Assembly: GCA_963674755.2 (NCBI GenBank)
Contig: CAXXVS010000002.1
Span: 32,001-96,000 of the forward strand
DNA length: 64,000 nucleotides
From: Desulfobacterales bacterium
GTDB lineage: Bacteria; Desulfobacterota; Desulfobacteria; Desulfobacterales; UBA5852
Reading direction: 5' to 3'
Shown piece after piece: positions 30,286 to 51,863 of the stretch. The first letter of the stretch is position 1; each line of letters opens with the position of its first letter. Position numbers and translations under genes: made by a program. The notes beneath the pieces are model-generated. The model ran no database searches. It was not told the origin of the DNA and worked only from the letters and a program-made list of their open reading frames with translations.

Positions 30286-31016
30286 TCTCCGCGACTTCCG
30301 TGGTGTCTCAGAACGATAACGACCACAGGATCATATGGAATATTGGTTGCATAGACGAAATTCAAAAAAGCGCCGATCGTCCCGCGCAATACCCCCCTCA
30401 CATCTCGTACAATGCTACGCGCCAGTCCTCCTCCGCCAATTCTATAACTTCCCCCGTACCTCACAATCTCGAAGCCCGTTTCTTGGATAAGCAGTTCGAA
30501 AACATCACGTGATAAGGCACTTTTATGGGTTGGATCGCCGTTCTGGGGCGCAAGTCCGAATGGGCTCTGGGCATTGGGAAACCGCAGAATAAGATGACCG
30601 CCAATCTTGATCATGAGCGCAAGCGCAACGAGTCGAGACGTAATCTCACTGACCGTGAAGTGCTCAAACACATCGAAACCAACGACCGTATCGAAACGAT
30701 TGCGGTGTTGTTCCGCAACCGTCTCAAGGTTAGCGGGCAGCAGCTCAATACCATGCTCTTGCGCCGCCTGTAGTGCTGCGACATTGGCCTCGCTGCCAGC
30801 AACGCTGGCACCCTGCTCGATCGCCCACGCAAGAAAACTGCCGAAACCGAACCCGATCTCGAAAACCTGAGCGCCCGCGATTTTCAGACCACGGCACTCT
30901 CCCCTGAAATAGGTATCTTCGTCTGCGGTAAAGGTAAACGGGCTGCTCCAGCCTTTCCAACCCTCATAGGCATGGTAGAGGTCATCTCGAACAGGATTGG
31001 ATCTAGTTTCCTGCAT
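30282..31016 (-). CDS. Class I SAM-dependent methyltransferase
   Basis: FEIGFGFG, FDVFEH, PNAQSPFG...DPTH; start taken at MQETRS. Confidence 0.88.
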   Translation of the reverse strand: MQETRSNPVRDDLYHAYEGWKGWSSPFTFTADEDTYFRGECRGLKIAGAQVFEIGFGFGSFLAWAIEQGASVAGSEANVAALQAAQEHGIELLPANLETVAEQHRNRFDTVVGFDVFEHFTVSEITSRLVALALMIKIGGHLILRFPNAQSPFGLAPQNGDPTHKSALSRDVFELLIQETGFEIVRYGGSYRIGGGGLARSIVRDVRGVLRGTIGAFLNFVYATNIPYDPVVVIVLRHHGSRGE

Positions 31017-32622
31017 AAAGACTGCCCTCACTTGATTCAACTTTCTTTTCCAGGTTTATTTTTCTCCTGGCGGATCCTTGCCACCCCGAGGCCGTACGCC
31101 TGCGTCTTTGAGATCGTAAGTACTTTTCCAACACGTTTATGAGAAGGGCGTAAGCCACGTACATGGGAATCACGGCGATAATGCCATTAACGAAAAATTG
31201 GGTAAGACCTCCCGCCGCCGTCGTGATCGACAACAGCACCAGCGGCATTCGAATATAGTTGTGATGCAACATGACCTGCACTGAGCGCCAAGACATCATG
31301 GCAAAAAACCATCCAATAAGCGGCATAATTACAACGATTCCCGCCCAACCAAACTGCCAGTAGACATCACCGAACACAGAGAGCCCAAGGGATGTTCCGG
31401 TATTGCGTGTAACAAGCGTGTAGAACTTGATCCCCGGGGCGATATATCTAGGTTTTCCAGGCCAAATAACGCGCGGGATGAAGAGTGCCCAGGCATTGCC
31501 GAGGGTGTCAATGAAACGCCCCCGCTCCCGGAATCGCATCGCTAATGCCTGTACCTGTGAATAATTGAGCCGAAGCCACCAGGATTCCTCCTCCAAGGCA
31601 TGATTGGCAACGCTATCCCCCACTTTGTATCGAAAATACTTCTGTACGATACCAACTCGTTCCAGATAACCTGCCCGCCAGATAGTCCCAGTCCGACTCA
31701 TGATCTCAGCCCGGCCGAAATGCACAAAGTCCTGCGCCAGACCGTAGACCACCATGATACCCAAGCACGCGATGATCAATTTCCAAAGACGCTTGTGGCC
31801 CAGATAGGCGCCGATGGCCGGAAACAAAAGCGCAGTCACCATGGCTGATTTCGAAAACGTCAGCACCAGCAGGAGGAGGTGCAGCGGCCAAAGCGTCAGC
31901 AACATCCAGCGCATCCTGGCTGAGCCCCGCGCCACAAGATAGGCTGCCATCCCGAAGCCAACATCGGCAATCCCGCCTATGGAAGTGAGTGCGCCAGCGA
32001 CTAAGATATGCAACTGCCCCCATTGGGACGGATACACGAATACATGACTCAGAATCATCCCGCCAAAGACGAATCCCTTGACAAGCGTCTCCGGTTTGAA
32101 TACCGGTCGCCCCTGGCTGGTCTGGCGAAACACAGCCAGCCACCAGACCTTCGCATTCAGTCTCGAATGAAGCCAAAAGCCGGCGACAATGCCGAGGATG
32201 CTGGTGAAGGAGAGAAGATTGGCATAGAACAACTCGACCTCGTCGATGGTAAACCTACCTACCGCCAGCTGTTTTTGGGTTGCTATATTGCCAAAAACAC
32301 CCACCAGCGGCCCAAACCCGAAGAATAGCGCCGATGAGACCAGGAACCAAAAAGCAGGAGACCAGAGTGCGGCCGGCAAGAGGCGCGCAACACGATAGCC
32401 CGAGAATAGGGTTACCGCGATCAGGTAGAGTGGCGCGCTGGCGTTGAATAGGGTGGCAACCTCCTTGTCCGGGGGTGCTAGGGCGGCGCCTGCCATCACA
32501 AGCGGCACGAGCAGGATAAAGGTGGTGGCATAGATGCCGGCGACCGGGTTCCTAAGCGAACGCCGGGCGTGAAAGCGCTGGTTGATCTGCCCAAGCGTTA
32601 TCGGTAGCATGGTAGGCTCCAC
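31003..32622 (-). CDS. Multi-pass membrane protein, probable Wzy polysaccharide polymerase
   Basis: About 11 hydrophobic segments; FIPRVIWPGKP and FGD.YWQFGWAG motifs; located among GT and wzx genes. Confidence 0.7.
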   Translation of the reverse strand: MEPTMLPITLGQINQRFHARRSLRNPVAGIYATTFILLVPLVMAGAALAPPDKEVATLFNASAPLYLIAVTLFSGYRVARLLPAALWSPAFWFLVSSALFFGFGPLVGVFGNIATQKQLAVGRFTIDEVELFYANLLSFTSILGIVAGFWLHSRLNAKVWWLAVFRQTSQGRPVFKPETLVKGFVFGGMILSHVFVYPSQWGQLHILVAGALTSIGGIADVGFGMAAYLVARGSARMRWMLLTLWPLHLLLLVLTFSKSAMVTALLFPAIGAYLGHKRLWKLIIACLGIMVVYGLAQDFVHFGRAEIMSRTGTIWRAGYLERVGIVQKYFRYKVGDSVANHALEEESWWLRLNYSQVQALAMRFRERGRFIDTLGNAWALFIPRVIWPGKPRYIAPGIKFYTLVTRNTGTSLGLSVFGDVYWQFGWAGIVVIMPLIGWFFAMMSWRSVQVMLHHNYIRMPLVLLSITTAAGGLTQFFVNGIIAVIPMYVAYALLINVLEKYLRSQRRRRTASGWQGSARRKINLEKKVESSEGSLYAGN

Positions 32623-36894: not shown

Positions 36895-38163
36895 CTACCA
36901 TAGAGAGAACACGCTCATACCTCGCCCACGCTTGGTACAAGTATCAACGCAGACATGACGCCCATCATACGACCACTTTGGATGCAAGTCGGCACGATAA
37001 CCGGTCGCCCGTACCGCGGAATCACTCGCAATTATTACTTCATCCAGAGGCTTGCGCTGCTCGACATCAAACAGGTAGAGGCGACAATTGCCTTCCTCGT
37101 CGGGGTATGTGTCGTTGATGATTGTAGTTGTGCTTCCCGGGCAAAATGTCGGATGTCCGTCCTCCGGCAGGATACTACGGTCTATTCGGTCGCGATCTCC
37201 GGTTTGGTCTGTAAATGACTGAAAACAGTCGCCGGTCACCTTGCGGGAAATCGCACCTCCAGGCGGGAACAATTTATGGTAAAGGGGAAGAAGTGGCTTT
37301 ATAAGGTTTTTGGCAATAGTCTTTTGTCCACGCAGTTTATTGAGCGTGGTACTGGTCCCGCCGTATCCGAACACGGTTCGATCGTCCCGCCAGCAGTAAT
37401 GACTCATACGTCCACTGTCGTTCAGCATGAACAGATTACGACCATCCGTGTCGGCGGTCAGCATGCGCGCATAGATACCCCCATCGACATTTAGCCAGCG
37501 GTGCAGGAAGACGAAACGGGAGTTGGCAGGATTGATCATCATATGCTCGAGATAATGAACTCCCGCATACATCGAGCTGACTCGCCCAATTTTCATCACA
37601 TCGCCGATAGCGATAATGCGCTCGAACGAGCCGTCGGCAAGTGACATCCTCCAGATACCATCCTCGGGATCGAACGGCTTCTTTTTCTCCAGGCGCGGTG
37701 TGCCTTGATAGTTATATCCTGGGCGGTACCAGAATAACCGATCGTAGTCGATCGAGAGCGCGTACTGACCATCACTGGTGATGGTGTAGGCTGGCATGGG
37801 CAGTACGGTTTCAGCGCCTGTCGCAATATCAAGCACAATTGCTCGGTAGTGGCCATCGCGGATGTCATTGTAGAGGACCCGACTACTAAAATCCGGTCCG
37901 AGCCACTGCAGCATCGAACCTTGCTGCCAGTTCCAGGAGCGCGTTTCGGCAATCGGCGTGAAGTCTCGGCCACCTGGAAATTCGAAGTATCCGATCGCGA
38001 TTGCCTCTCCAGCCTCGGGCATGCGGTTGATGAACGGCGTACGTTGCGCAAGTAGACGGTTGTTGTCGGCATTCAGGGGCGATTTGTCGTAGTAGCCAAA
38101 AAAATAATCGCCATCAGGAGGAGTTTCGTAGATCTGGTTTAACGTAATTGGAGTAGCGCTCAT
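36895..38163 (-). CDS. Beta-propeller (TolB/oligogalacturonide-lyase-like) protein of polysaccharide loci
   Basis: YFFGYYDKSP, SWNWQQG.MLQW, SHY.W, DGHP, R.DLHPKW. Confidence 0.7.
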   Translation of the reverse strand: MSATPITLNQIYETPPDGDYFFGYYDKSPLNADNNRLLAQRTPFINRMPEAGEAIAIGYFEFPGGRDFTPIAETRSWNWQQGSMLQWLGPDFSSRVLYNDIRDGHYRAIVLDIATGAETVLPMPAYTITSDGQYALSIDYDRLFWYRPGYNYQGTPRLEKKKPFDPEDGIWRMSLADGSFERIIAIGDVMKIGRVSSMYAGVHYLEHMMINPANSRFVFLHRWLNVDGGIYARMLTADTDGRNLFMLNDSGRMSHYCWRDDRTVFGYGGTSTTLNKLRGQKTIAKNLIKPLLPLYHKLFPPGGAISRKVTGDCFQSFTDQTGDRDRIDRSILPEDGHPTFCPGSTTTIINDTYPDEEGNCRLYLFDVEQRKPLDEVIIASDSAVRATGYRADLHPKWSYDGRHVCVDTCTKRGRGMSVFSLW

Positions 38164-39547: not shown

Positions 39548-41422
39548 CTACCACTCACCGGTTCCTGCATAGTTCCAAACAGAGTAAGCCCACCGCCTCG
39601 CCCATCGGCACTTTGGCTTTGCAAGTTTTTCAATCGTCTTCCAGGCTTGGGAGCGCTCGTCGGATTTCAGCCATTCAGCGATTGGAGTCGAGAAGCCCGT
39701 CTTTGCCCGATTGGTTACAGGTGCTGGCAGGGGTTGCACCGGTGCCGATGCGAGGAGCGATTTCCCCTTATTCTGCGCAAAACCGGAGACAAGTGCGGGG
39801 GATGTCTCTTCGAGAAGTATCTTGTCTACGAGTGGCACCCTGACCTCGAGCGAATGGGCCATGCTCGCCCAATCCGAATCGCGAAGCAACTGGTTCCGCA
39901 TGTAGAGCTCCGCTTCGAGTGCCGCGACTTTGCCGAATGGCGAGCGCGGCCCATCGCTTAATAAATCGGAGATCAGAGCAATCGGTTGTAACTCCCGTAG
40001 GCCGGCGGCAACGAACTCGGGCTCTAAAATAGCGTCGAGTTCGTCCGGCATGAAGACCCCTCTACGTACAAGATAAGCACCGGGATAGGTGCCGCCGTAG
40101 GTAAGTAGAGCGGCGATCTTCGGGTCGATGGCCTCGCCACTCAGCCGCTGCGCTCCCATGATCAGAGGCGCCAGCCAGGAGGTTCCGTCGTGGCGTATAC
40201 CCATTCGACCTAGAATGCTGACCGATCGTGGGACGTCGCGAAACGCTGGATAGCCGCCGAACAGTTCATCGCCACCCAGTCCGGAAATCGCCACCTTGAG
40301 TCCGAGTTCGTGTGCGGCCTTGCTGACGAACCAGGTGTTAAGGCCGTCGATGGTCGGCTGATCCATCGCGTCGAGTATTTTTGACAAATCTTCAAGGAAT
40401 TCTTTCCGAGAAACGCCTCTGCTCGTGTGACTGGCACCGTAACGACGGGCGATTTCCGCTGCCAGTGGTGCCTCGTCGTCATGTCTACCCTGAAATTCCT
40501 CGAAGTAGAGCGTTACGGTGTTGATTTCATGATCAGTCGCATCGCGCATCAAGCCAAGCAGGGCGCCAGAATCGATCCCCGCCGATAGAAACAGCCCCAC
40601 GGGGACGTCGGCCACCAGGTGATGGCGGACGCTGTCGGCGAGGCTGCGGCGGACCGTCTCGGTTACAAGCTCATCGTCCGGCTTTTCCCCTTTAGAAGCT
40701 GCTTCATTCGACCGAATTTCGGCCTGGGCAATTAAGTGACTGATCGAGCAATAGGGCATAATGCGCGGGTTGTCATTTGCCTCGACGATCATTGTTGTTC
40801 CTGCGGGCAATGCACGGATGGCGCGGCACCAGGTGAATGGCTCTGGTACCGAGCCGAACAAATAGAAACCGACGACGCCCGCCGGATCCACATCCTTCGC
40901 GATTTCTCCTCCGGCCAACAGCGACTTGACTTGGGATGCGAAGGTGATGCCTTTCGCGCTGTCGACGTAGTAGAGTGGCTTGATGCCGTAAGGATCGCGC
41001 GCGAGCATTAAGCGGCGTTTTTGGCGCTCGAATATCGCGAAGGCGAACATGCCTCGCAATCGCTCGACCATTGCGGGTCCATAAGCGTCGTAGAGATGCA
41101 ACAGGACTTCCGTGTCTGAGGTTGTTCTGAAGACATACCCACGCGCAATAAGGCCATCTCGGAGGATTTGGTAGTTATAGATTTCTCCATTGAATGTGAC
41201 GACCAGTCGCCCATCCGGCGTTTGCATCGGCTGTGATGCGCGCTCGGAAACATCGATGATCGAAAGCCGCCGATGCACAAAGCCGACGGACGCTTCCGTC
41301 TCTTCGATCCAAAGTCCATCACCGTCGGGCCCACGGCGGGACATGTGTTGCGAAATTGCCGCGAGTTCGATTTCGTTGACGCGTCCGCCCGCGTATCGGA
41401 ATTGACCACCGATCCCGCACAT
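39548..41422 (-). CDS. asnB: Glutamine-hydrolyzing asparagine-synthase-like amidotransferase, probably polysaccharide amidation
   Basis: MCGI (catalytic Cys2), RGPD, HRRLSIID, FNGEIYN, FLSAGIDS, SGLGGDELFGGY, SMAHSLEVRVP. Confidence 0.93.
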   Translation of the reverse strand: MCGIGGQFRYAGGRVNEIELAAISQHMSRRGPDGDGLWIEETEASVGFVHRRLSIIDVSERASQPMQTPDGRLVVTFNGEIYNYQILRDGLIARGYVFRTTSDTEVLLHLYDAYGPAMVERLRGMFAFAIFERQKRRLMLARDPYGIKPLYYVDSAKGITFASQVKSLLAGGEIAKDVDPAGVVGFYLFGSVPEPFTWCRAIRALPAGTTMIVEANDNPRIMPYCSISHLIAQAEIRSNEAASKGEKPDDELVTETVRRSLADSVRHHLVADVPVGLFLSAGIDSGALLGLMRDATDHEINTVTLYFEEFQGRHDDEAPLAAEIARRYGASHTSRGVSRKEFLEDLSKILDAMDQPTIDGLNTWFVSKAAHELGLKVAISGLGGDELFGGYPAFRDVPRSVSILGRMGIRHDGTSWLAPLIMGAQRLSGEAIDPKIAALLTYGGTYPGAYLVRRGVFMPDELDAILEPEFVAAGLRELQPIALISDLLSDGPRSPFGKVAALEAELYMRNQLLRDSDWASMAHSLEVRVPLVDKILLEETSPALVSGFAQNKGKSLLASAPVQPLPAPVTNRAKTGFSTPIAEWLKSDERSQAWKTIEKLAKPKCRWARRWAYSVWNYAGTGEW

Positions 41423-42510
41423 CAGCCAAGCACCTCAATCAATCGATTCTTGAATGCGCTGTACCGGAATTCCGCTTGCCAGCGTTCCTGGCCAGCGCGG
41501 CCCATATTGCTTGAGCGATCCGGGTTTCCCAGCAGGTCGATCAAGCGCTCTTCCAAAGCGTCTTTGCTGTTGAGGTCGATGTTGTAACCAGTGACTCCAT
41601 CAAGATTAACCTCTTGTCCGGCGTCGTGAACCGATGCAATAACGGGTATTCCATGACGCATTGCTTCGATATACACCAGCCCAAAACCTTCACCACGCGA
41701 GGGCATTGCAAAAACGTGTGCCTGTGACCATACTTGCGCTAACTCGGCCTCGCTCAAAAAGCCTTTGACATCGATATTCGTTGAGGCACTCGAATTTGCC
41801 GCATGCGTGATGATTGAGTCTTTCCCTGTTCCACTGCCGACAATGACGAGTCGGGCGTCTGGAACAGCAGAAACGATTTTTGGCCAGACCTCGATGATTT
41901 CGCGATGTCCCTTATACAGGTTACCGTCATCCATGCGCGCAACGATCAACGCGGTTGGTGGTCCGCTAAACGTTGCGGGCATTGAGGATGGTTTGTCCTC
42001 CTCGGTCCCCAACTGGCAGACTCGAGCCTGTTGTAGCGTACCATGCTTTTCTTCGAACCTGGCAAGCGTGTAGCTCGAGTTTGACAACACAAGGCCGGCG
42101 CGCCGTAGTACGTTTTTACGCTCCGTAGAAAGATCGCCCCAAACCTCAATTCCATGTATCCACACAACGTATGACCGTTTAAAACCCGGCAATCGCGGAT
42201 GGGCGCGTGCTGTGCCCAGAAAGTCGTAGATAAAACCGCCATGGGTTATTGCCGCCGCATGGCAATGTGCCAAAAAACGTACTTTACTTCCGTATGCCCT
42301 ACTCGCGACTCTACCAGCTACTTCAACCGGCGCCTCGTCGGATAAGGACAGAAGTGAAACATCCACCCCTGTCTCGATTAGCGCGCGCGCTGTGTTTCTC
42401 GCCACGCGGGCGATGCCACCCAGACCGGGGGTAAACAGTGCCGCAGCAACATGGATTTTCTGCGTGAGTGGTACGAATGCAGGGACGCTATTCACATTTT
42501 CACATTCCAT
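41422..42510 (-). CDS. Glycosyltransferase family 4
   Basis: GGI.R, HG.EVW, SNS.YT, YKGH, MPSRGEGFGLVYIEAM. Confidence 0.92.
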   Translation of the reverse strand: MECENVNSVPAFVPLTQKIHVAAALFTPGLGGIARVARNTARALIETGVDVSLLSLSDEAPVEVAGRVASRAYGSKVRFLAHCHAAAITHGGFIYDFLGTARAHPRLPGFKRSYVVWIHGIEVWGDLSTERKNVLRRAGLVLSNSSYTLARFEEKHGTLQQARVCQLGTEEDKPSSMPATFSGPPTALIVARMDDGNLYKGHREIIEVWPKIVSAVPDARLVIVGSGTGKDSIITHAANSSASTNIDVKGFLSEAELAQVWSQAHVFAMPSRGEGFGLVYIEAMRHGIPVIASVHDAGQEVNLDGVTGYNIDLNSKDALEERLIDLLGNPDRSSNMGRAGQERWQAEFRYSAFKNRLIEVLG

Positions 42511-43369
42511 CTATCCATTCAGTTATTTCATGTTGCACTTCCGGCAGCAGGGAATAGTTTCTTGGATAGCAGAGACTGTATGCCGGCAGGTGTTGCGTCA
42601 TATCTGCCATGCTGTCGAACAGGGCTATATTTTTTTTCTGATCCGTTACATCGAGTTGGAATGATTGTTTTATCAGGTTCATCAAGGCGGTTTGTTTGCT
42701 GATCGGCGAAATGTTTATTTGGCTGTTGTTCTTGCAAGCATCTCGATCTTCAAGAATGAAGACAGCCTTTAGCGGAAGCACCGTATTGATGGTCTCGCTG
42801 CCGGAGGTGAGCCGTTTTTTGGATGAATAGTATGCCATCGGCGCTAGTGCGGGGGCGGTTGCAAAAAGCGCTTCCAAGGAATCCGGCCAAAGCCTTGGGC
42901 CTGCGTCGAATGGCGTCAGCGTCACATGCCGGTTTTCCAGGTTGAGCTGGATGCAGTCGTCGGCCAGCAAGGGCGTTCCCTGCTGATGAAAGGCAGCGGC
43001 CAGGGTCGATTTGCCGTAGCCTGTCTCACCGATGAAGGCCACGGCTTGATCATCGATGGACACGGCGCTGGCGTGGACCATGATATGGCCCTGGTGGCTC
43101 AAGATCCGCGGCAGGACCTGGTCCCCAAAATAGTGGTCGATGGTGTCCTGGGTCGCATCGGACGCCGGATGGCACACAATATCCAGGCCGTTTTCTGAAA
43201 CGAGAAAGTCGGTCTGGTCCGGGAACCTCAGGAGATAGCCGAAGGCGGAGCGGGCCAGGGAGAGGGTGATTTCGCCATCGGGCAATTTCCAGTGGTGGAT
43301 CCAGCGATGGTTCCCATCGCCGGATAATCTTGTATTTTTAATGTTGAATTTTAAATTGGGGGGAATCAA
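42500..43369 (-). CDS. HPr-kinase-like lasso peptide kinase (PadeK/PsmK-type); 5' end uncertain
   Basis: VHASAV, FIGETGYGKSTLAAAF, LADD, PRLWPDS; adjacent to lasso precursors. Confidence 0.85.
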   Translation of the reverse strand: MIPPNLKFNIKNTRLSGDGNHRWIHHWKLPDGEITLSLARSAFGYLLRFPDQTDFLVSENGLDIVCHPASDATQDTIDHYFGDQVLPRILSHQGHIMVHASAVSIDDQAVAFIGETGYGKSTLAAAFHQQGTPLLADDCIQLNLENRHVTLTPFDAGPRLWPDSLEALFATAPALAPMAYYSSKKRLTSGSETINTVLPLKAVFILEDRDACKNNSQINISPISKQTALMNLIKQSFQLDVTDQKKNIALFDSMADMTQHLPAYSLCYPRNYSLLPEVQHEITEWIDGM

Positions 43370-43552
43370 TAGAAGCTATATTTGAATACAGTATGTTGAA
43401 TTCTGAATTGCCGGAAAAAACCCTTAATAAGTTTGAGTTATGGGTATATAAATTCATACTTTATGAAGCGGTGTTAGTGGTATTAATTTACTGCGTTCCC
43501 CCGAGTGGTGATGCTATCGCGGTCAGCGAACTTTTTTGGGATACGACAACGA

Positions 43553-43717
43553 TCAGGAACGTCTACCCGGATCATCCCGATGCCACCAACCTTCACGCCA
43601 TCCCCTTGATCCAGCGGCGGTCAATTCGCGGATGTTGCCATACTCTCTTAGAGATGGGCTTTGGTACGTTTTCTTAAGTTCCTCGTTTGACAATATTTTT
43701 CCTTCGGCGATTTTCAT
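43553..43717 (-). CDS. Lasso peptide precursor A2 (54 aa; not in ORF track)
   Basis: MKIAEGKILSNEELKKTYQSPSLREYGNIRELTA|AGSRGWREGWWHRDDPGRRS*; YxxPxL and G...LT(-2) leader motifs, Glu8 acceptor, C-terminal Ser; alternative ATG at 43729. Confidence 0.9.
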   Translation of the reverse strand: MKIAEGKILSNEELKKTYQSPSLREYGNIRELTAAGSRGWREGWWHRDDPGRRS

Positions 43718-43803
43718 TTTTAAACCCATCTTTTATTGTTGGATACGGGGTTATGAGTTTTGAACGTGGAGTGATGTGTTTGAGATTGCCAGCAAGTTTT
43801 AGC

Positions 43804-43959
43804 TCAGGGGTACCGATGCCTTTGCTGTGGCCAGTTTTCTGGTTTTCGGCCTGAGCCGCCGGCGGTCAGGTCGCAGATGCGACCGTATTCCCTTAGCTCC
43901 GGCGGTCGGTAGTTCTTTTTAGGGCGGGTTTTCTTATTGGCGGTTATGTTGTCGGTCAT
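43804..43959 (-). CDS. Lasso peptide precursor A1 (51 aa; not in ORF track)
   Basis: MTDNITANKKTRPKKNYRPPELREYGRICDLTA|GGSGRKPENWPQQRHRYP*; YxxPxL and G...LT(-2) leader motifs, Gly1/Glu8. Confidence 0.9.
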   Translation of the reverse strand: MTDNITANKKTRPKKNYRPPELREYGRICDLTAGGSGRKPENWPQQRHRYP

Positions 43960-44112
43960 ATGCACAAATCGTTCTGAGGCTGCGGACGTCGCGTTATTAT
44001 CTTCCGTTATGATGGCGAATGATTACTAATTATCTTTTTGCCATTCGTAGTACCTAAGCAGGCGTTGTGTCAAATGATTACTTTTTCGGGCATCGGGCAT
44101 CAAATGCGTCAT

Positions 44113-46032
44113 TCAGCCCTCATAATTGTGGTCCTTCCATGCGATAAGCGCTGCGGCTTCCCACACGTATTGTCGATCGTTGTCCGAGGCGGCGCCGTTT
44201 TGGAAATTTTGGTTGGCCTGGCGGATTTTGGGTTCATCCACGTAGTCGCTGACTTCGGAAAGATCTTGCGTGATGGTCCGGTTCAGGTGGGTCTTGTGGC
44301 TGTTCATCAGGGCGGTGATGAATTGCCAACCCAAATGGTTTTTGTCGGTGCGAAAACAGACGTCCCGCGGCAGGTAGCGGGACATGGATCGGCGCAGGAG
44401 GTATTTCGACCACCCCCGGCGGTCTTTCTGGTCCAGGGGCAGGGAGAGGTAAAATTCCACCAAACGCCGGTCGGTGTATGGGCAGCGAGGTTCGATGCCG
44501 AACCGGGCCGCGACGCGGTCGTAGCGTTCCAGGCCCACGGTCAAGTAAGGATGGAGCAACTTTTGCGCGTGGGCCTGGATCGGGTCTTTGACCAGGCCGA
44601 TGGGGTGATGGCGCCGCAGCTGGTGGAGGCGGTCTTCGAGGCCGATCCGTTGGGCGAACTCCGGACGGATGGCCGACTCTTTCATGGCCTCACAGTAGTC
44701 GTTGCCGGCCGGCCAAAAACGGCGTTTGACCTTGCGCAGGCGGTCCGTGACAAATGCGGCCCGGGCATTGGCGTGGAGCAGGTGCCAGGGGGAATCATAC
44801 GCCCCGGCCGTGGTGTCTTTCCGGAAGGCGTCGGCCAGCACCGCGAGCCAGCGGCCCTGCCTGAGAAGGTAGGCCAAGTAGTCGGTGCCGTAAGAGCAAA
44901 GGTTGTCCCCGGCCACGCCGTCAAGCAGGGTTTTGCAGCCCTGCGCCCGGGCGGCACCGTACAGGGCGCCCGGCAGGACCATGAAGATGTCGAAAGGATT
45001 GTCCGTCGGCGCCACGGCCTGTCCGAGGTCCTCGAAAAAGGGGCCGGGTTGATTTACGGCAACCAGGTGCGATGTCTGGGTGCCGCTGTCGATGACGCGC
45101 CGGATGAAATGGGTCTCCGGGCAGGTGATGCGATCCGGCGTCACGGCGGAAAAGGTTTGCAGGCGCGTCCGGCCGGTCTGGTTTAGGATGTTGCGGCCAA
45201 TGGCCACCACCGCCGAGGAATCCATGCCGCCACTGAGCATGGAGGCCGGAGGGGTGGGGCTGCGCAGGCGGCAGCGAACGGCCTGGGTGAAAATTTCCAG
45301 AAAGGCTTCGGTGTATTGGGCGTCGGACGGCAAGAACGTTTTTTTAGTGACGTCGGGTTCCCAATAAGTCTGGGTGCGCAGGCCGTTGCGGTCCACGGTG
45401 ATCCAGCAGGCCGGCGGCAGACGATGGATGTTGGCGGAAAAGGTGCTCGTTTTGTCGATGCCCTCCAACTCGGAGACCAGAAAATCGGCGATGCGCCCTT
45501 CGTTGATCCGCAAGGGTACGGCGGGCAGGGCCCGCAAGGCGTTTTCTTCCGAGGCCAGGGCAAAGAGCCTGTTGGGCTGGTGGTGGTAATAAATCGGTTT
45601 GACCCCCAGGGCGTCCCGGGCGGCAAAGAGGCGCTGTTGGGTGCCGTCCCAGATGACAAAGGCGAAATCACCGATGAGTCTCAAGGGGGCGGCCGTGCCC
45701 CAGCACCGGTAGGCCTCGATGATCAGTTCGCCATCGCCCATGGGGGCCGCAGCGCCGGCGGCCAGGCCGAGGTTGCGAATCAATTCGTCGCGGTTGTCGA
45801 TGCGGGCATCGGCGATGATGGTCATCGGGGATAGCGAGTGGGTCAGGGGCATGTGTTCGGTGAGGGATTCCGGGGTCGTAAAAAGGGCGCCCCAGGCCAG
45901 GCCCACGGGCCCGCTGATCCAGGCGGCGCTGCCGTCCGGTCCTCGATGCGCCTGCATGTCGAGCATGAGCTGGAGATCGGCGGTCGATGCGGGCTTGTCG
46001 TTCAGGTGATATATGCCGGCGATGGCTGCCAT
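44113..46032 (-). CDS. Lasso peptide cyclase (C protein, asparagine-synthase-like)
   Basis: MAAIAG (no catalytic Cys2), HRGPDG, DARIDNR.EL, LIGDFAF, LSGGMDSS, E.R.PY.DRRLVEF; adjacent to B1/B2. Confidence 0.92.
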   Translation of the reverse strand: MAAIAGIYHLNDKPASTADLQLMLDMQAHRGPDGSAAWISGPVGLAWGALFTTPESLTEHMPLTHSLSPMTIIADARIDNRDELIRNLGLAAGAAAPMGDGELIIEAYRCWGTAAPLRLIGDFAFVIWDGTQQRLFAARDALGVKPIYYHHQPNRLFALASEENALRALPAVPLRINEGRIADFLVSELEGIDKTSTFSANIHRLPPACWITVDRNGLRTQTYWEPDVTKKTFLPSDAQYTEAFLEIFTQAVRCRLRSPTPPASMLSGGMDSSAVVAIGRNILNQTGRTRLQTFSAVTPDRITCPETHFIRRVIDSGTQTSHLVAVNQPGPFFEDLGQAVAPTDNPFDIFMVLPGALYGAARAQGCKTLLDGVAGDNLCSYGTDYLAYLLRQGRWLAVLADAFRKDTTAGAYDSPWHLLHANARAAFVTDRLRKVKRRFWPAGNDYCEAMKESAIRPEFAQRIGLEDRLHQLRRHHPIGLVKDPIQAHAQKLLHPYLTVGLERYDRVAARFGIEPRCPYTDRRLVEFYLSLPLDQKDRRGWSKYLLRRSMSRYLPRDVCFRTDKNHLGWQFITALMNSHKTHLNRTITQDLSEVSDYVDEPKIRQANQNFQNGAASDNDRQYVWEAAALIAWKDHNYEG

Positions 46033-46473
46033 AGTGTCCATCCAGAAAGGGCATCTTTTAGCCCCTGGCGGCGTTCTCGCCTCCTGTCGGTCCTCGGCGT
46101 AGCCAAGCTACGCCTGTGGGCACCCACCGTTGAAGAATCAATCAGATGGGAAGTCCCGCTCAGCGGGACGCCAGTCGGCTGCGGCCTTGCCAGGAACCAA
46201 AATCTACCCTTTCTGGACGGACACTTTTGCTTATCCAAAAAAAGCATCTTTTAGCCCCTGGCGGCGTTCTCGCTTCCTGTCGGTCCTCGGCGTAGCCAAG
46301 CTACGCCTGTGGGCACCCACCGTTGAAGAATCAATCAGATGGGAAGTCCCGCTCAGCGGGACGCCTGTCGGCTGCGGTTTGTTGAACACCGATGTTTTTG
46401 AAGATCAGACGTGAAATCCCGCGCTGTGCTGCGGGACCGGGAACCAAAACCTACCATCTCCGGACGGACACTA
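46032..46473. mobile_element. Two tandem MITE-like elements (AGTGTCCATCCAGAAA/TTTCTGGACGGACACT ends)
   Basis: 134-bp near-identical direct repeat 46051-46184 vs 46244-46377 (2 mismatches by eye); terminal inverted repeats; TA at outer ends. Confidence 0.8.
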
Positions 46474-46955
46474 TTCAAAAGCAAAGCGAATTTTATCCGG
46501 ACGTCCGGGTTCTCATGCAAGGGTTGGCCCTGGTATTCGACCCAGGCGTGGGCTTGAATGGTGCGGCTGTTTTTTTGGACCCCGATGCAAATGTCGCTGT
46601 CGATGCACTGACGGCGCAGCAGGCTCCAGAGGGTCAGGGAACGGGGCAGGCAGTTGGCGCGGCCGAGCCGGGTTTGAGCGGCCCGGTGGACCATTTGGGC
46701 TGCGGTCTGGGCGATATTGTCCGCGTTGGCTTGTCTTCCCCAAGGTGCTGTCTGTCGGCCGGTGACCCACGTTAGCAGATGGTGGAGCCTTTGGTAGCCC
46801 AGGGTTTTCAAACCGATCCTTACCAGGGGAAGGCTTACAAGAGCCTGGAGGAAGAACCGTTTTTCCTGGCAGGAAAGGGATTGGAATAATGACGGCCCTC
46901 TAAAAAGTCCGACCCGCCGCGATAAAGGCGGATGAATATCTGCGTTACGCTTCAT
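46353..46955 (-). CDS. Lasso peptide leader peptidase B2 (transglutaminase-like)
   Basis: ANCLPRSL (Cys), IGV, AHAWVE (His); both termini run into repeat elements. Confidence 0.92.
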   Translation of the reverse strand: MKRNADIHPPLSRRVGLFRGPSLFQSLSCQEKRFFLQALVSLPLVRIGLKTLGYQRLHHLLTWVTGRQTAPWGRQANADNIAQTAAQMVHRAAQTRLGRANCLPRSLTLWSLLRRQCIDSDICIGVQKNSRTIQAHAWVEYQGQPLHENPDVRIKFALLLNSVRPEMVGFGSRSRSTARDFTSDLQKHRCSTNRSRQASR

Positions 46956-47065: not shown

Positions 47066-47332
47066 TCAGGATGACCTGGCCTGTATGAGGCCTTTTTCCA
47101 GCAGCTTTGCGATGAGCTGCTCCAGGTCTGATTTCAGGGTGTCGGGGTCCACGTCGTATTGTTCAAGCAGCGATGCGAAGGCCGCTTCGACGGTCTGGCC
47201 GGAGGTGAGGGCATTGATCATGCGGGTGCCGACTTCGTCCAGACCGAAGTACATTTCCGAATCGAGATTGAGAAGGACCGCTTCCCCGTCCAACTCCCTG
47301 ATTTTTACGTAGTCCGGAAGATCGTATTTCAT
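47066..47332 (-). CDS. Lasso peptide B1 / PqqD-family RiPP recognition element
   Basis: 88 aa: MKYDLPDYVKIRELDGEAVLLNLDSEMYFGLDEVG...QYDVDP..LKSDL..L...L.EKGLI. Confidence 0.93.
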   Translation of the reverse strand: MKYDLPDYVKIRELDGEAVLLNLDSEMYFGLDEVGTRMINALTSGQTVEAAFASLLEQYDVDPDTLKSDLEQLIAKLLEKGLIQARSS

Positions 47333-47358: not shown

Positions 47359-48573
47359 CTAAGAAGTTTCCCAGGATGAAGGGGTGAAAGTCGTTTGCTT
47401 TGCATCCCTTCGTTGTTCGATCCAGTGGCGGAATTCCTTGGCCTGATCCGCCCAGCGATGGATATAGCAGGGTACCAGCGAACGATGAGCGGCGATGTTG
47501 TAACGGATGCGCATGTAGGCCGGGGGCGGCACGGCGGTCTGCAGGATCATGCGCAACGAATCGCTGAGGGAAAGGTTCGTCATGCTGCGGCGGGCGTTTT
47601 CCCATCGCGCCCCCTTATGATTCAGGCGGGTGATCAGGGTGAGGTCTTCATCGGCTGGGCGGCGATCGTGCAAGGCCTGGAAAACCGCATCCGGTAGGGC
47701 CGAGTCCAACTCGGGGGTGTCAAAGGACTGCTTGACCCGCCGCAGGGTGCGTTCTGCGGCATAGGTCCAACCGAAAGCCACGGCCTGGGTGACAAGCAGG
47801 TCCCAGTCGATGGCCTCCCGGGTAATGGATAGATACACGTCCATGGTGTGCAGGTGGGTGATTTCCGGCTCGCCATGCTGGAGTTGGGCATGGGCCATGA
47901 GGTAGAGCAAATGGGCTTCCGGTTTCAGCGTGAGGAAGCGGCCGGCCTCGATGTCGATTTCGCGGGTTTGATGATGGAACCAGGTCATTTTGGGTTCGGT
48001 CATCCAGGTATGGGGGGCGCTGAGCAGCCAGTAGTGGAGCTCCAGTGCCACGGCCCGGCCCATGCCGCCTTCGAGGACAAAGTGATGGCTGTTGTCGATG
48101 CCCTTGGCGTTCGTCTGGCTCCACAGGTGGCCGGGATCGTCTATTTTTTGAAAACCGCTGCATTCCAGGGTATGCAATGCTGGCTGCCGAAGATGGTAGG
48201 GAATCAGCACGTCGAGGTCGGCCATGGGGCGCGTCCAGGGTCTGGGGTAGACGGTGTTGGCCAGGATGCTGCCCTTGAGCCACAGGGCCGGGATGTGGGC
48301 GTCGCGGAGTGCTATATTGACCTGCTTCAGGGTGTCTTCATACATTTCATACAGGGCGGCGGTTTGCAGGGCAGCGTTTTTTACCGGCTGCCACTGTTCG
48401 CTGTCCAGTTCGACGGCCGGGACGGAGGCGTTAGCCTGTTTGATGACCCAGTAAAGCATGGGGGCCAGATCGTGGGCCAGGGCGACCTTAATGATCGGTG
48501 GCCAGTGGCCGGCCGGAATAGATGGCGGGTCGACTTGTTGGGTCAGCAGGGCGGTTAGGGTTTTTAAAACCAT
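47359..48573 (-). CDS. Nucleotidyltransferase family protein (type found in paeninodin/pseudomycoidin-like clusters)
   Basis: LKG..LA..VYP.P..RPMADLDVLI, LELHY.L. Confidence 0.85.
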   Translation of the reverse strand: MVLKTLTALLTQQVDPPSIPAGHWPPIIKVALAHDLAPMLYWVIKQANASVPAVELDSEQWQPVKNAALQTAALYEMYEDTLKQVNIALRDAHIPALWLKGSILANTVYPRPWTRPMADLDVLIPYHLRQPALHTLECSGFQKIDDPGHLWSQTNAKGIDNSHHFVLEGGMGRAVALELHYWLLSAPHTWMTEPKMTWFHHQTREIDIEAGRFLTLKPEAHLLYLMAHAQLQHGEPEITHLHTMDVYLSITREAIDWDLLVTQAVAFGWTYAAERTLRRVKQSFDTPELDSALPDAVFQALHDRRPADEDLTLITRLNHKGARWENARRSMTNLSLSDSLRMILQTAVPPPAYMRIRYNIAAHRSLVPCYIHRWADQAKEFRHWIEQRRDAKQTTFTPSSWETS

Positions 48574-48611: not shown

Positions 48612-48792
48612 TAGTGCCTATCCATAAATGAAATGCATTTTTTGGCCCCTGCCGGTGTTCTCTGGGGCTGCGCCTGTGGGCGCCCGTCGGCTGAGGTTTG
48701 TTGAACACGGATGTGACCAAAAATCAGACGTGAAATCCCGCGTTCCGCGGTGGGACCGGAAGCCAGAATCTATCATCGCTGGATCGGCACTA
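48612..48792. mobile_element. Third, internally deleted copy of the TAGTG...CACTA MITE-like element
   Basis: TAGTGCCTATCCA ... TGGATCGGCACTA; shares GTTTGTTGAACAC..ATCAGACGTGAAATCCCGCG..GGGACCGG with 46377-46440. Confidence 0.75.
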
Positions 48793-50650
48793 TATAGTTG
48801 GCTGGGTTTGTCGATGCTGTTGATTCTTGGTTGTATTGGGCTCGCCAGGACCAGGCGTAGCGGCCATCGAGGGATATCAATTGTTCGTGGGTGCCGGACT
48901 CGGTTATGCGGCCGGCGCCCATGACGTGGATGATGTCGGCGTGCATGGCGGTGGTGAAGCTGTGTGTGATCACCAGGGCGGTTCGCCCCCGGGTAAGGGT
49001 GCGGAATCGGGCCAGCCAGTCAGCCTGGGCCCAGGAATCCATGAAACTGGTCGGCTCGTCCAGGACGATGATGGGCGATCGGCGCAGGAAGGCCCGGGCC
49101 AGGGCTATCCGCCGCCATTCGCCGGCGCTCAGGTCGGTGCCGCCGTCGAACCATTTCCCCAAACGCGTGTTGCCGCCGTCAGGCAGGCGTTGAACGATCT
49201 CTTCCGCGCCTGCGGCGGCAATCGCGTCGTTGAGGTCGTGCGGGCCGGGGACCGTCTGCACGCTGCCCATGGCGACGTTTTCAACTAAAGAAGCGTTGAA
49301 GCGAATAGGCTCTTGGAAGAGGACGCTTATCTGGCGCCGCAGGTCGGCGATAGCGAATTCCCGGATGTCGATGTCGTTGATGCGAATGGTCCCGGACTGG
49401 GGATCGTAGAACCGGCAGAGCAGTTTGAGCAAGGTGGTTTTGCCGGCGCCGTTGGGCCCCACGATGGCGGCTGTCTGGCCGGCGTGGATATGCAGATCCA
49501 GCTCTTCCAGTGCCGGGCGGTCGGTGCCGGGGTATCGAAAGCTTATATGGTCGAAACGAATGGCGTAGCGCTGTCGGTGGGGCATCGGTGCCGGTCGGGC
49601 AGGGTCCTTCATTCCAGGTGTCATATCCAGAAATTCGAAGAGGTTCCCCAGGAACAGGCTGTTGGAATAGAGTTCCCCCACATTGGCAAGCAGGGTCCGC
49701 ATGAGGCGCTGGCCCTGGCTGAAGGCCTGGTAGATAAGGGCCAAGTCGCCGAGGGTGTGTCGGCCGCGGGCGGTTTGCCATACCATCCAGATCATGGCCA
49801 GGCCGGTGATCAGCATAGCGGCCAGGGCGGCGCCGAATTCGGCCAGGCTGCGCCGTTTGATTAATTGGGTGAGCCGGTTGCGCAAGGTGCGGCGTACGTT
49901 CTGATAAAGGGATTTGAAACGGTCACCCAGGTCGAACAGGCGCAGTTCGGCGGCGGTTTCCCGGTCGGTGAGCAGCCAGTCATAGTACCAGCCCCGACGG
50001 CGATGGGCGGTGGATTCCAGCTGCCATTGGTGCATGAGCAGGCGGTGGTGAAGGACCACGTAAAGGGCCGGCAGGGTGCTGATAATGAGTGCGATGGGCA
50101 GCAGCCAGCCGTAGGAAAGCAGCACCCCGGCCATGGCTATGGCCGTAATGGCGGTTTGCAGCAGGCTGCCGAGGTTTTCCAGCAGGGCCACAGGGCGGTG
50201 GCCGGCGTCGTTGCGGGCCCGGTGCAGATGGTCGAAAAAATCAGGGGATTCGTAAAACGCCATGTCCACAGCCATCGATTGTTCGTGGACCAGACCGGCG
50301 ATGTAATCTTTGACCCGCTCGCCTTGAACGGTCCGCACCCAGTTGGTAAAGCCGCGCAGCAATTCGCCGAACAGCATGAGCCCGGCCATGAGCGCCACCC
50401 AGATCAGTACCGGTGTCGCCGCGGCGATGCTGACATCATTGCCGATCAGGTCGACCAGGCCGTTGACCAGAGCCCGGGTCAAGTAGACCGTGGCAACAGG
50501 CAAAAGGCCCTGGAGGACGAGCAACGTGATCCAGCCCAGCGTCCATTTCCCCGTTGCGGCACGGACCAGGGCGAAGGTGCGGGGGAGGAAGCGGAGTTGG
50601 TTGCGGAAGCGGCTCAGCCTGTCTTTTATTATGGGCAGGAGAGGGGGCAA
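48773..50650 (-). CDS. ABC exporter, fused permease/ATPase (lasso D-type)
   Basis: N-terminal TM domain; GPNGAGKTT, LSAGEW, LDEPT. Confidence 0.92.
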   Translation of the reverse strand: MPPLLPIIKDRLSRFRNQLRFLPRTFALVRAATGKWTLGWITLLVLQGLLPVATVYLTRALVNGLVDLIGNDVSIAAATPVLIWVALMAGLMLFGELLRGFTNWVRTVQGERVKDYIAGLVHEQSMAVDMAFYESPDFFDHLHRARNDAGHRPVALLENLGSLLQTAITAIAMAGVLLSYGWLLPIALIISTLPALYVVLHHRLLMHQWQLESTAHRRRGWYYDWLLTDRETAAELRLFDLGDRFKSLYQNVRRTLRNRLTQLIKRRSLAEFGAALAAMLITGLAMIWMVWQTARGRHTLGDLALIYQAFSQGQRLMRTLLANVGELYSNSLFLGNLFEFLDMTPGMKDPARPAPMPHRQRYAIRFDHISFRYPGTDRPALEELDLHIHAGQTAAIVGPNGAGKTTLLKLLCRFYDPQSGTIRINDIDIREFAIADLRRQISVLFQEPIRFNASLVENVAMGSVQTVPGPHDLNDAIAAAGAEEIVQRLPDGGNTRLGKWFDGGTDLSAGEWRRIALARAFLRRSPIIVLDEPTSFMDSWAQADWLARFRTLTRGRTALVITHSFTTAMHADIIHVMGAGRITESGTHEQLISLDGRYAWSWRAQYNQESTASTNPANYIVPIQR

Positions 50651-50967: not shown

Positions 50968-51288
50968 TCACTTCTTTTTAAGATCGATGATGTTATCCGC
51001 ACCAGCTTTTGGGGCCCTGGCGCTTTTGACCTTGCGGAGCAGGTGGGGCGACACATTCCACTTCTGACCGGCTTCCGTGATGATCGTAACGGTTTTCTTG
51101 TTGTATTTTACCAGCGTGCCAAACTGCTTGCCACGGCCGGGAGGCTCGAAAGACACCTGATCGCCGGGTGCAAATTGCATCATCTCCCTGTGCGTGTGCA
51201 TGGCATCCAGGAATTTAAGGCGCGCCACAATCTGGTGGTTCAAAGCGACGAGTTCATCGTAGCTTAACGATTCGATATCGATTTTCAT
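50968..51288 (-). CDS. Hypothetical protein (small, possibly SH3-like beta domain)
   Basis: 106 aa with RBS (GGGGTAAGGA); F.PGD.VSF...G.LVKYNKKTVTI....G.KW.VSP.LL. Confidence 0.75.
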   Translation of the reverse strand: MKIDIESLSYDELVALNHQIVARLKFLDAMHTHREMMQFAPGDQVSFEPPGRGKQFGTLVKYNKKTVTIITEAGQKWNVSPHLLRKVKSARAPKAGADNIIDLKKK

Positions 51289-51395: not shown

Positions 51396-51863
51396 TCAAT
51401 AGTCGTCTTCTTCTTCGTCATAGTCCGGGTATTGCTCCGGGGACTGGCCGACACGCTTGACTATGGTGATCACTTTGGTCTGGCCGGGAACTTCCGTGAT
51501 GCGCTCCACCCGGATGCGATGCCACCAGTCGTCGCCGAAATCGAAAAGATAGTGAAAGACCTCTTTTTCGGGCAGATCCAGATCGCCCAGACGGGTTTGG
51601 GCGGCCGAGTGTCGGGAGGGGCCGAAACCAATGGCATTCTGAACATTCTGGGGATGGGTGATCTCCGGCGCATTGTATATCGTGCGGACGTTCTTGGTAT
51701 CCTGGCGGGTCATGAAAAAGGAGTACAGATGGGGATCGTAGCGGTCGAAGGCCTCGAAGATGGCCTCGTGGAGATCCTCCAGGGTGGCGTTGGATGAAAT
51801 GTCGATCAGCCGGTAAAGACGCGGGATGCCAATGATGGATACTTTCAGGCGGTAACGTTTCAT
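51396..51863 (-). CDS. Plasmid pRiA4b ORF-3 family protein
   Basis: TL.DLH.AI..AF..Y..HLY.F and YLFDFGDDW.H.I.VE motifs. Confidence 0.85.
   Translation of the reverse strand: MKRYRLKVSIIGIPRLYRLIDISSNATLEDLHEAIFEAFDRYDPHLYSFFMTRQDTKNVRTIYNAPEITHPQNVQNAIGFGPSRHSAAQTRLGDLDLPEKEVFHYLFDFGDDWWHRIRVERITEVPGQTKVITIVKRVGQSPEQYPDYDEEEDDY

Follow-up and report, generated by a model that had tools for sequence, protein, structure and literature searches.

The window, a stretch of 64,000 nucleotides, carries a lasso peptide cluster on its minus strand in the order D-N-B1-B2-C-A1-A2-K, with a family match on each enzyme. A1 lies ~75 bases upstream of A2, which is placed between A1 and K. The genes, and the parts of A2, are:

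48773..50650, minus strand: D, ABC exporter (PF00005, PF00664)
47359..48573, minus strand: N, NTP_transf_5 nucleotidyltransferase-fold tailoring enzyme (PF14907, 116.5 bits)
47066..47332, minus strand: B1, PqqD-type RRE chaperone, 88 aa from ATG 47332 (PF05402, 59.4 bits)
46353..46955, minus strand: B2, leader peptidase, transglutaminase-like (PF13471; NF033537, 90.2 bits)
44113..46041, minus strand: C, lasso macrolactam cyclase (NF033535, 581.5 bits against a cutoff of 525; PF00733)
43804..43965, minus strand: A1 precursor gene, from GTG 43965 or ATG 43959, leader ...KKNYRPPELREYGRICDLTA, core GGSGRKPENWPQQRHRYP
43553..43729, minus strand: A2 precursor gene, ORF of 58 aa from ATG 43729 or 54 aa from ATG 43717
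43616-43729, minus strand: A2 leader, the product reading MGLKMKIAEGKILSNEELKKTYQSPSLREYGNIRELTA and then the core
43556-43615, minus strand: A2 core, AGSRGWREGWWHRDDPGRRS
43607-43609, minus strand: A2 Ser3 codon
43592-43594, minus strand: A2 Glu8 codon
43556-43558, minus strand: A2 Ser20 codon
43553-43555, minus strand: A2 stop
42500..43369, minus strand: K, HPr-kinase-like peptide kinase, 289 aa from TTG

The PF05402 match of B1 covers residues 108-174 of a long ORF, which as listed extends to 47605. A dispersed repeat of ~145 bases is also found in the cluster, with two copies between C and B2 (46040-46184 and 46233-46377; 97% alike) and a partial copy between N and D (48678-48793); repeat DNA covers the final ~40 codons of B2 and a few at the end of D. 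At least 44 matches to this repeat were found in the genome (40 of 140 candidates scored), and contig depth in the last bin, 45996-46100, is ~1700 compared with 15 elsewhere. GC content is 0.605 from D to C and 0.500 across A1-A2-K, for a genome value of 0.579. Directly upstream of D are a 106-aa ORF without a family (50968-51288) and a PRiA4_ORF3 gene (plasmid pRiA4b ORF-3-like; 51396-51863), perhaps remnants of mobile DNA at the cluster edge.

The lasso cluster sits inside a long minus-strand polysaccharide locus, which contains GT4 and GT2 enzymes, a Wzy-type protein, a flippase, a sulfotransferase, methyltransferases, a carbamoyltransferase, a priming transferase and an epimerase. At 42500-42510 the K stop lies within the first bases of a GT4 gene. 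Two ORFs of this locus, of 422 aa (36895-38163) and 539 aa (31003-32622), are without a Pfam match, and the former is also without an NCBIfam match. An asparagine-synthase-like gene near the cluster (39548-41422) was considered and rejected as a second lasso cyclase (NF033535, 165 bits against the cutoff of 525); its best specific family is the XrtA/PEP-CTERM system amidotransferase TIGR03108 (356.5 bits, under the cutoff), and it scores higher against the generic asparagine synthase TIGR01536 (375.3 bits).

What characterizes a lasso precursor is found in A2, namely the leader motif, a small first core residue together with Glu8, and adjacent B1, B2 and C. Its leader reads Y(-17)xxP(-14)xL(-12)...T(-2)A(-1), with a Gly at -8, and thus holds all four of the leader recognition elements (Y-17, P-14, L-12 and T-2) given in the available text on the bsf system (PMC10368454). 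Against the NCBIfam model NF033521 (lasso_leader_L3) the A2 leader passes with 20.9 bits for a cutoff of 19, and A1 scores 16.2 bits, just under it; a Pfam scan of A2 returned no family. The core AGSRGWREGWWHRDDPGRRS contains three Trp, five Arg, Ala1, Glu8 and a C-terminal Ser20. Over the last 20 leader residues, A2 and A1 are identical at 13 positions. An earlier sequence-only reading of this DNA had described A2 as a second precursor that has its leader block in common with A1 and differs in its core, and had counted the retained Glu8, the three Trp, the five Arg and the final Ser; this description is borne out and the counts are correct. It had also placed the gene at 43553..43717. The stop stands, but the start is better set at ATG 43729, because the homologue P0004 begins VGLKMK and the 58-aa form of A2 begins MGLKMK. 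No clear Shine-Dalgarno sequence was found at either start codon, 43729 or 43717.

The pattern shared by the two precursors is rare. When the strict motif Y..P.L...G.{5}T. is required together with a short downstream tail that has Asp or Glu at positions 7-9, two six-frame segments of the window match, compared with three matches in 150 mononucleotide shuffles and two matches in 150 triplet shuffles, which places the A1/A2 pattern above chance. With a slightly wider motif, only A1 and A2 match in the six frames of the whole 6,714,429-base genome. Both precursors, in both start forms, are absent from a collection of 15 billion proteins in which the adjoining kinase K is present, so that the earlier description of A2 as unannotated holds, and extends to A1. 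A literature search found neither of two 10-letter core strings. Scans for Rfam families and for tRNAs returned zero of each, promoter and terminator scans gave nothing above shuffles, and the A2-K spacer folds no better than its shuffles (z -0.67). Judged by its sequence, A2 is a genuine, uncalled second lasso precursor of a kinase-equipped, bsf-like group.

A word-index search with A2 alone gave no candidate. A phmmer search of A2 against 1.84 billion representatives gave 14 matches at E <= 0.001, three of which are small proteins on short JGI metagenome contigs: P0004 (58 aa, E 8.1e-9), with the core GGSGPNPEGRLGWAKWRQRT (GGSGPNPE...) and a tail that is also Trp- and Arg-rich; P0006, with the core SGSKGGWEDGPSQKAYRM (SGSKGGWE...); and P0015, with the core AGSRGLREGRVGGFKL (AGSRGLRE...), which is the A2 ring with Leu for Trp6. 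The other 11 are long proteins (382-1906 aa, with many matching stretches each) and were set aside; the four that were scanned are InlB B-repeat proteins (PF18998), and the likeness (LTA..G.....GW) is taken to be a coincidence. In the alignment of A1, A2, P0004, P0006 and P0015, the leader residues Y, P, L, Y, G, I, L, T and A and the core residues Gly2 and Ser3 are invariant (5/5), and the five sequences end in S, T, L, M and P. Five A2-like peptides that are more distant came from a profile search, with P, M, P, P and P as their last residues; in P0019, a distant homologue, core positions 2-5 hold neither Ser nor Thr.

Evidence for the ring comes from the register of related cores. In the 11-row kinase subclade described below, leaders end in LTA and all eight distinct non-window cores (seven loci) have Gly2, Ser or Thr at position 3, and Glu8. 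The same x-Gly2-Ser/Thr3-...-Glu8 register is found in all three close A2 homologues, and Ala1 occurs in other cores of the family, such as AGTGRGME and AGTGFAAE. Given the Thr at -2 and the common LTA ending, the cut is predicted before Ala1. An Ala1-Glu8 ring with a 12-residue tail is the best reading of A2 and is well supported as a prediction; it had been proposed from the sequence earlier, and the sister-strain allele (AGSR..RE, below) also agrees with it. Three distant clusters (L026, L041 and L061) each hold a GG- or SG-start precursor ending in Pro and an AG-start precursor (AGTGRGME..., AGTGFAAE...), a pairing that mirrors A1 and A2.

In its composition A2 stands apart: it is the only one of 91 distinct cores with at least two Trp or at least four Arg, which confirms that it is unusually rich in both. 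The net charge of mature A2 would be about +2, and about 0 with one phosphate. This composition had led to the idea that the peptide may bind membranes or polyanions such as EPS. Binding to EPS finds no comparative support, since homologues of three nearby genes of the polysaccharide locus (GT4a, GT4b and the 422-aa ORF) lie at only 3, 1 and 0 of 162 related loci (tblastn, E <= 1e-8). For the same reason, the putative gene link between lasso and polysaccharide is specific to the window's genome and not conserved. Neither a cyclase query (E <= 1e-60) against 12 genomes of the same genus nor a query with A1-A2 DNA against 16 further genomes of the family found the lasso cluster, and GT4a was not found in the 12 same-genus genomes at E <= 1e-40.

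Public sequencing runs allow alleles to be compared. Contigs from runs X1 and X2 show zero differences from the window over 42400-46090; these two runs are one sample and are possibly the source of the window's assembly. Run X3 comes from another study, under another organism label, and holds a diverged copy, referred to here as the sister strain. Its 946-base contig (depth 2.7) matches 43603-44069 with 15 differences, and in the A2 leader seven listed base changes lead to two residue changes, R28T and N32S. Below 43603, the first base of A2 core codon 5, the contig is unlike the window's DNA; its 30 visible letters in the A2 frame read D-K-R-E, then I-F-T-P-H-G. The sister-strain allele thus keeps AGSR, Arg7 and Glu8 and has a different tail, as seen on one depth-2.7 contig with the tail end out of view. 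In X3 one base is also missing at 44117, two codons before the cyclase stop, where only the last residues of C would change. Runs X5, X6 and X7 gave one 36-base piece or nothing over 43330-44110. The change at codon 5 looks like a swapped core cassette. As the two strains share the leader and AGSR..RE and have unrelated DNA at ring positions 5-6 and in the tail, a bolder and rather improbable reading can be formulated, in which A2 would be a diversifying core cassette on a fixed scaffold, carrying a phosphoserine in its ring that is maybe decorated with a sugar, and acting on the adjoining polysaccharide. If true, this would be a cationic, Trp/Arg-rich lasso co-transcribed with an adjoining locus for a sulfated and carbamoylated polysaccharide.

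The kinase K is a distant relative of HprK and not a member of the families PF07475 (HPr kinase/phosphorylase; 25 bits, below the GA of 33.3) or TIGR04352 (HprK-related kinase A; 54.9 bits for a cutoff of 200). A profile of K and its relatives matches the HprK structure 3tqf (E 3.7e-5), and the best Foldseek matches of its AlphaFold (AF2) model are PEPCK and HprK/P (3tqf_A, E 7e-7). Residues H99, G114, G117, G119, K120, S121, D137 and D138 are the same in all 16 kinases of an alignment, with the spacing of H148-G163-G166-G168-K169-S170-D186-D187 in BsfK. A predicted complex of K, B1 and A2 gave a score that was not specific to chain 1.

To place K among related kinases, 80 loci were gathered around cyclase relatives in genomes and 80 around kinase relatives in metagenomes, the latter with a 6-row alignment as query (a metagenome scan with a single kinase sequence found nothing). 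The kinase tree was built from the 128 of 147 kinase matches with at least 200 aligned residues, 19 being dropped. A precursor was accepted where the leader motif occurred no more than 3.5 kb from the kinase and on its strand, and matches without a strict leader were dropped (one each at L119, L161, L100, L063 and L070). BsfK, SyanK and PadeK are not among the rows of the kinase trees, with Paenibacillus, Priestia and Bacillus loci standing in for PadeK. In the 93-row clade that holds K, only one of 51 distinct non-window cores ends in Ser (at L100), whereas all 51 have Ser or Thr within core positions 2-5 and 42 of 51 have the acceptor at position 8. The proportion with Ser or Thr at position 3 rises towards K, from 21/51 in this clade to 10/13 in the 26-row clade (96, starred) and 8/8 in the 11-row subclade; none of the 13 and none of the eight cores end in Ser. 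Since position 3 carries Ser or Thr in only 21/51 cores of the wide clade and position 5 in 26/51, the predicted phosphorylation site is not fixed across it. On the opposite side of the tree (cyanobacteria, archaea and others), 3/26 cores end in Ser.

BsfK of Bradymonas sediminis FA350 phosphorylates Ser3 of a core ending in Asp, a reaction that B1 speeds up, according to the available text (PMC10368454). LppK, an RRE-guided HprK-like kinase of linear peptides, likewise phosphorylates core S3, as described in the accessible portion of its report (PMC13381572). The core at L141, GTSGSAMDSTPADSLPTP (GTSG...STPAD), resembles the BsfA core, and the 26-row clade of K also includes the L141 kinase; the BsfA core (beginning GTSG and containing STPAD) was translated by eye from the gene printed in the available part of PMC10368454. 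A1 (GGSG) and A2 (AGSR) both offer Ser3, so both are expected substrates and the final Ser of A2 would be incidental. By analogy with BsfK and LppK, A1 and A2 are probably both modified by K. Altogether, it is proposed with moderate confidence that the A2 leader is cleaved off after Thr(-2)-Ala(-1), that the ring closes from Ala1 to Glu8, and that K most likely phosphorylates the ring Ser3 of A2 and of A1, not Ser20. In this pathway B1 would bind the YxxPxL leader, and K, aided by B1, would phosphorylate Ser3 of the linear precursor; B2 would then cleave the leader and C would close the 8-residue ring around the 12-residue Trp/Arg-rich tail. N would perhaps decorate the phosphate, and D would export the product.

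Among the alternatives, the one that survives best, although it is judged unlikely, is that K is impaired or inactive in the window's lineage and that A2 and A1 are made as plain, unphosphorylated lassos. K starts ~27 HMM positions later than its relatives, so that the first ~27 positions of the family are absent from it. At the expected ancestral start lies an out-of-frame ORF of 39 codons (43338-43457) that begins MNLY, like the kinases of relatives (MSLYSY, MTLYRV), and meets the K frame at a C6 run (43358-43363). This ORF may be a remnant of the missing N-terminus of K, but the HMM comparison is not significant: the ORF has no match to an HMM of 17 relatives, and an X-joined read-through into K aligned only from HMM position 25, for shuffles of at most 0.9 bits. 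The sister-strain kinase, P0002, belongs to the same 90% cluster as K and shares its residue changes with X3; its gene call begins no earlier than Met97 (193 aa). X3 carries dense substitutions over 42935-43328, in the N-terminal half of K (eight differences are listed within the 19 bases of 43160-43178), and many of the inter-strain differences alter a residue: those listed, a partial set, touch 21 codons of K with 13 residue changes and 12 codons of C with 7. The late start and the call of P0002 from Met97 suggest that K may be weakened in the window's lineage. Against a loss of activity, the 289-aa frame is open, all eight catalytic-motif residues are retained, the model has a pLDDT of 90.8, and the X1 and X2 contigs, which may be the source of the assembly, are identical to the window.

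A second alternative, quite unlikely, is that K is a paeninodin-type kinase, that only Ser20 of A2 is phosphorylated, and that A1, which ends in Pro, is left unmodified. This is what the sequence-only reading had proposed, with the C-terminal Ser as substrate of K, A2 as the modifiable peptide and A1 as the unmodified one. In agreement with the paeninodin rule, A2 has a C-terminal Ser, and PadeK, ThcoK, SyanK and PsmK act on the C-terminal Ser of the linear precursor, as stated in the available text of two reviews (PMC8498205, PMC9266682). A C-terminal Ser is present in each of the Firmicutes precursors that were located by hand (4/4; a search by hand at L081 and L084 found no precursor). SyanK is proteobacterial, and there could be a C-terminal-Ser kinase within the clade of K, as both BsfK and SyanK are outside the sampling of the trees. 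However, the frequencies given above (1/51 and 0/13) and the A2 homologues, of which 0/8 end in Ser, place the terminal Ser of A2 at about chance expectation. K and the Firmicutes kinases are also separated: with IQ-TREE, 67 kinases divide into 45 on the window side and 22 of cyanobacteria, archaea and Firmicutes at SH-aLRT 100, for groups taken from an earlier tree, and a first tree of 66 rows gave the same two clades at 95, likewise starred. Both precursors, moreover, carry the Ser3 used by BsfK and LppK, which argues against a modifiable A2 beside an unmodified A1. It is thus most likely that the anatomy given for A2 earlier was right and the kinase logic wrong.

Even less weight is given to the possibility that A2 is multiply modified, by K on both Ser3 and Ser20 or by a sugar added by N or the adjacent GT4. 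There are reports of polyphosphorylation and of relaxed specificity in such kinases, in the part of the literature available here, and PsmN adds a hexose to the phosphoserine of pseudomycoidin according to the available text of the reviews (PMC8498205, PMC9266682). A glycosyltransferase acting on a mature lasso, IgtG, is known (PMC11912497), and the stop of K overlaps the GT4 start. Against this, BsfK is reported in the available text to be strictly regioselective for residue 3 (PMC10368454), LppN is described in the accessible portion of its report as inactive in a heterologous host (PMC13381572), and GT4 homologues lie near only 3/162 related loci. Finally, it is highly improbable that A2 is a duplicate gone silent or in decay, from which no product is translated. 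This idea would account for the lack of an evident RBS, the absence of an A2 gene call in any source and the repeat elements that interrupt the cluster, but is at odds with an intact frame with all leader recognition positions, with homologues up to E 8.1e-9, and with leader changes in the sister strain that are mostly synonymous (seven bases listed, two residues).

Outside Firmicutes, lasso clusters with a kinase are few, and A2 adds to them an uncalled precursor with an unusual Trp/Arg-rich core. The textbook rule that a lasso kinase means a C-terminal Ser is not transferable to the clade of K, since a hydroxyl residue is conserved in the ring across ~50 related precursors. A ring phosphoserine is the modification to expect on both A1 and A2 when the cluster is mined or expressed, and A2 and A1 provide a clean natural contrast for studying site selection by the kinase.

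Compared with known systems, the paeninodin family (PadeA/PadeK, ThcoK, SyanK), as far as it is covered by the available sources, shares with the window cluster B1, B2, C, D, an HprK-like kinase and a nucleotidyltransferase, and A2 is paeninodin-like in that its core starts with Ala-Gly and ends in Ser. The paeninodin-type precursors of Firmicutes (L068, L069 and L083) have Asp at core position 9, whereas A2 has an 8-residue ring ending in Glu; their kinases and K lie on opposite sides of the SH-aLRT 100 branch, and the C-terminal Ser that is the rule for paeninodin occurs in only 1/51 cores in the clade of K. Pseudomycoidin (PsmA/K/N) also combines a kinase with an NTP_transf_5-type enzyme, and PsmN is a model for what N may do; pseudomycoidin itself is described in the available text as coming from Firmicutes and carrying its modification on the C-terminal Ser, unlike the reading of A2 preferred here. 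The Lpp system of linear polyphosphorylated peptides (LppA/K/B/S/D/N) resembles the window cluster in having an HprK-like kinase and an NTP transferase in the cluster, but according to the accessible portion of its report it is without a cyclase and B2, removes its leader in a signal-peptidase-like manner, has another leader motif, and belongs to a Bacillota host (PMC13381572).

Also among the closest known systems is bsf, in which A, B1, B2, C, D, K and N are found and where the role of N is given as unknown in the available text (PMC10368454). In that text, bsf has one precursor whereas the window cluster has two, and BsfA has Ile at -2 where A2 has Thr. The Trp/Arg-rich tail of A2 is unlike that of BsfA, and K is N-terminally shorter than its relatives. 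The two clusters are alike in being split-B lasso clusters with an HprK-like kinase, an NTP_transf_5-type gene and a YxxPxL leader. BsfK and K have the same H-G-G-G-K-S-D-D catalytic motif with identical spacing; for their putative orthology the only link is an indirect one, through the likeness of the L141 and BsfA cores. At the level of the substrate, the BsfA core described there and that of A2 both have a small first residue, Ser3 and an acidic residue 8, in a pattern for which a C-terminal Ser is not needed.
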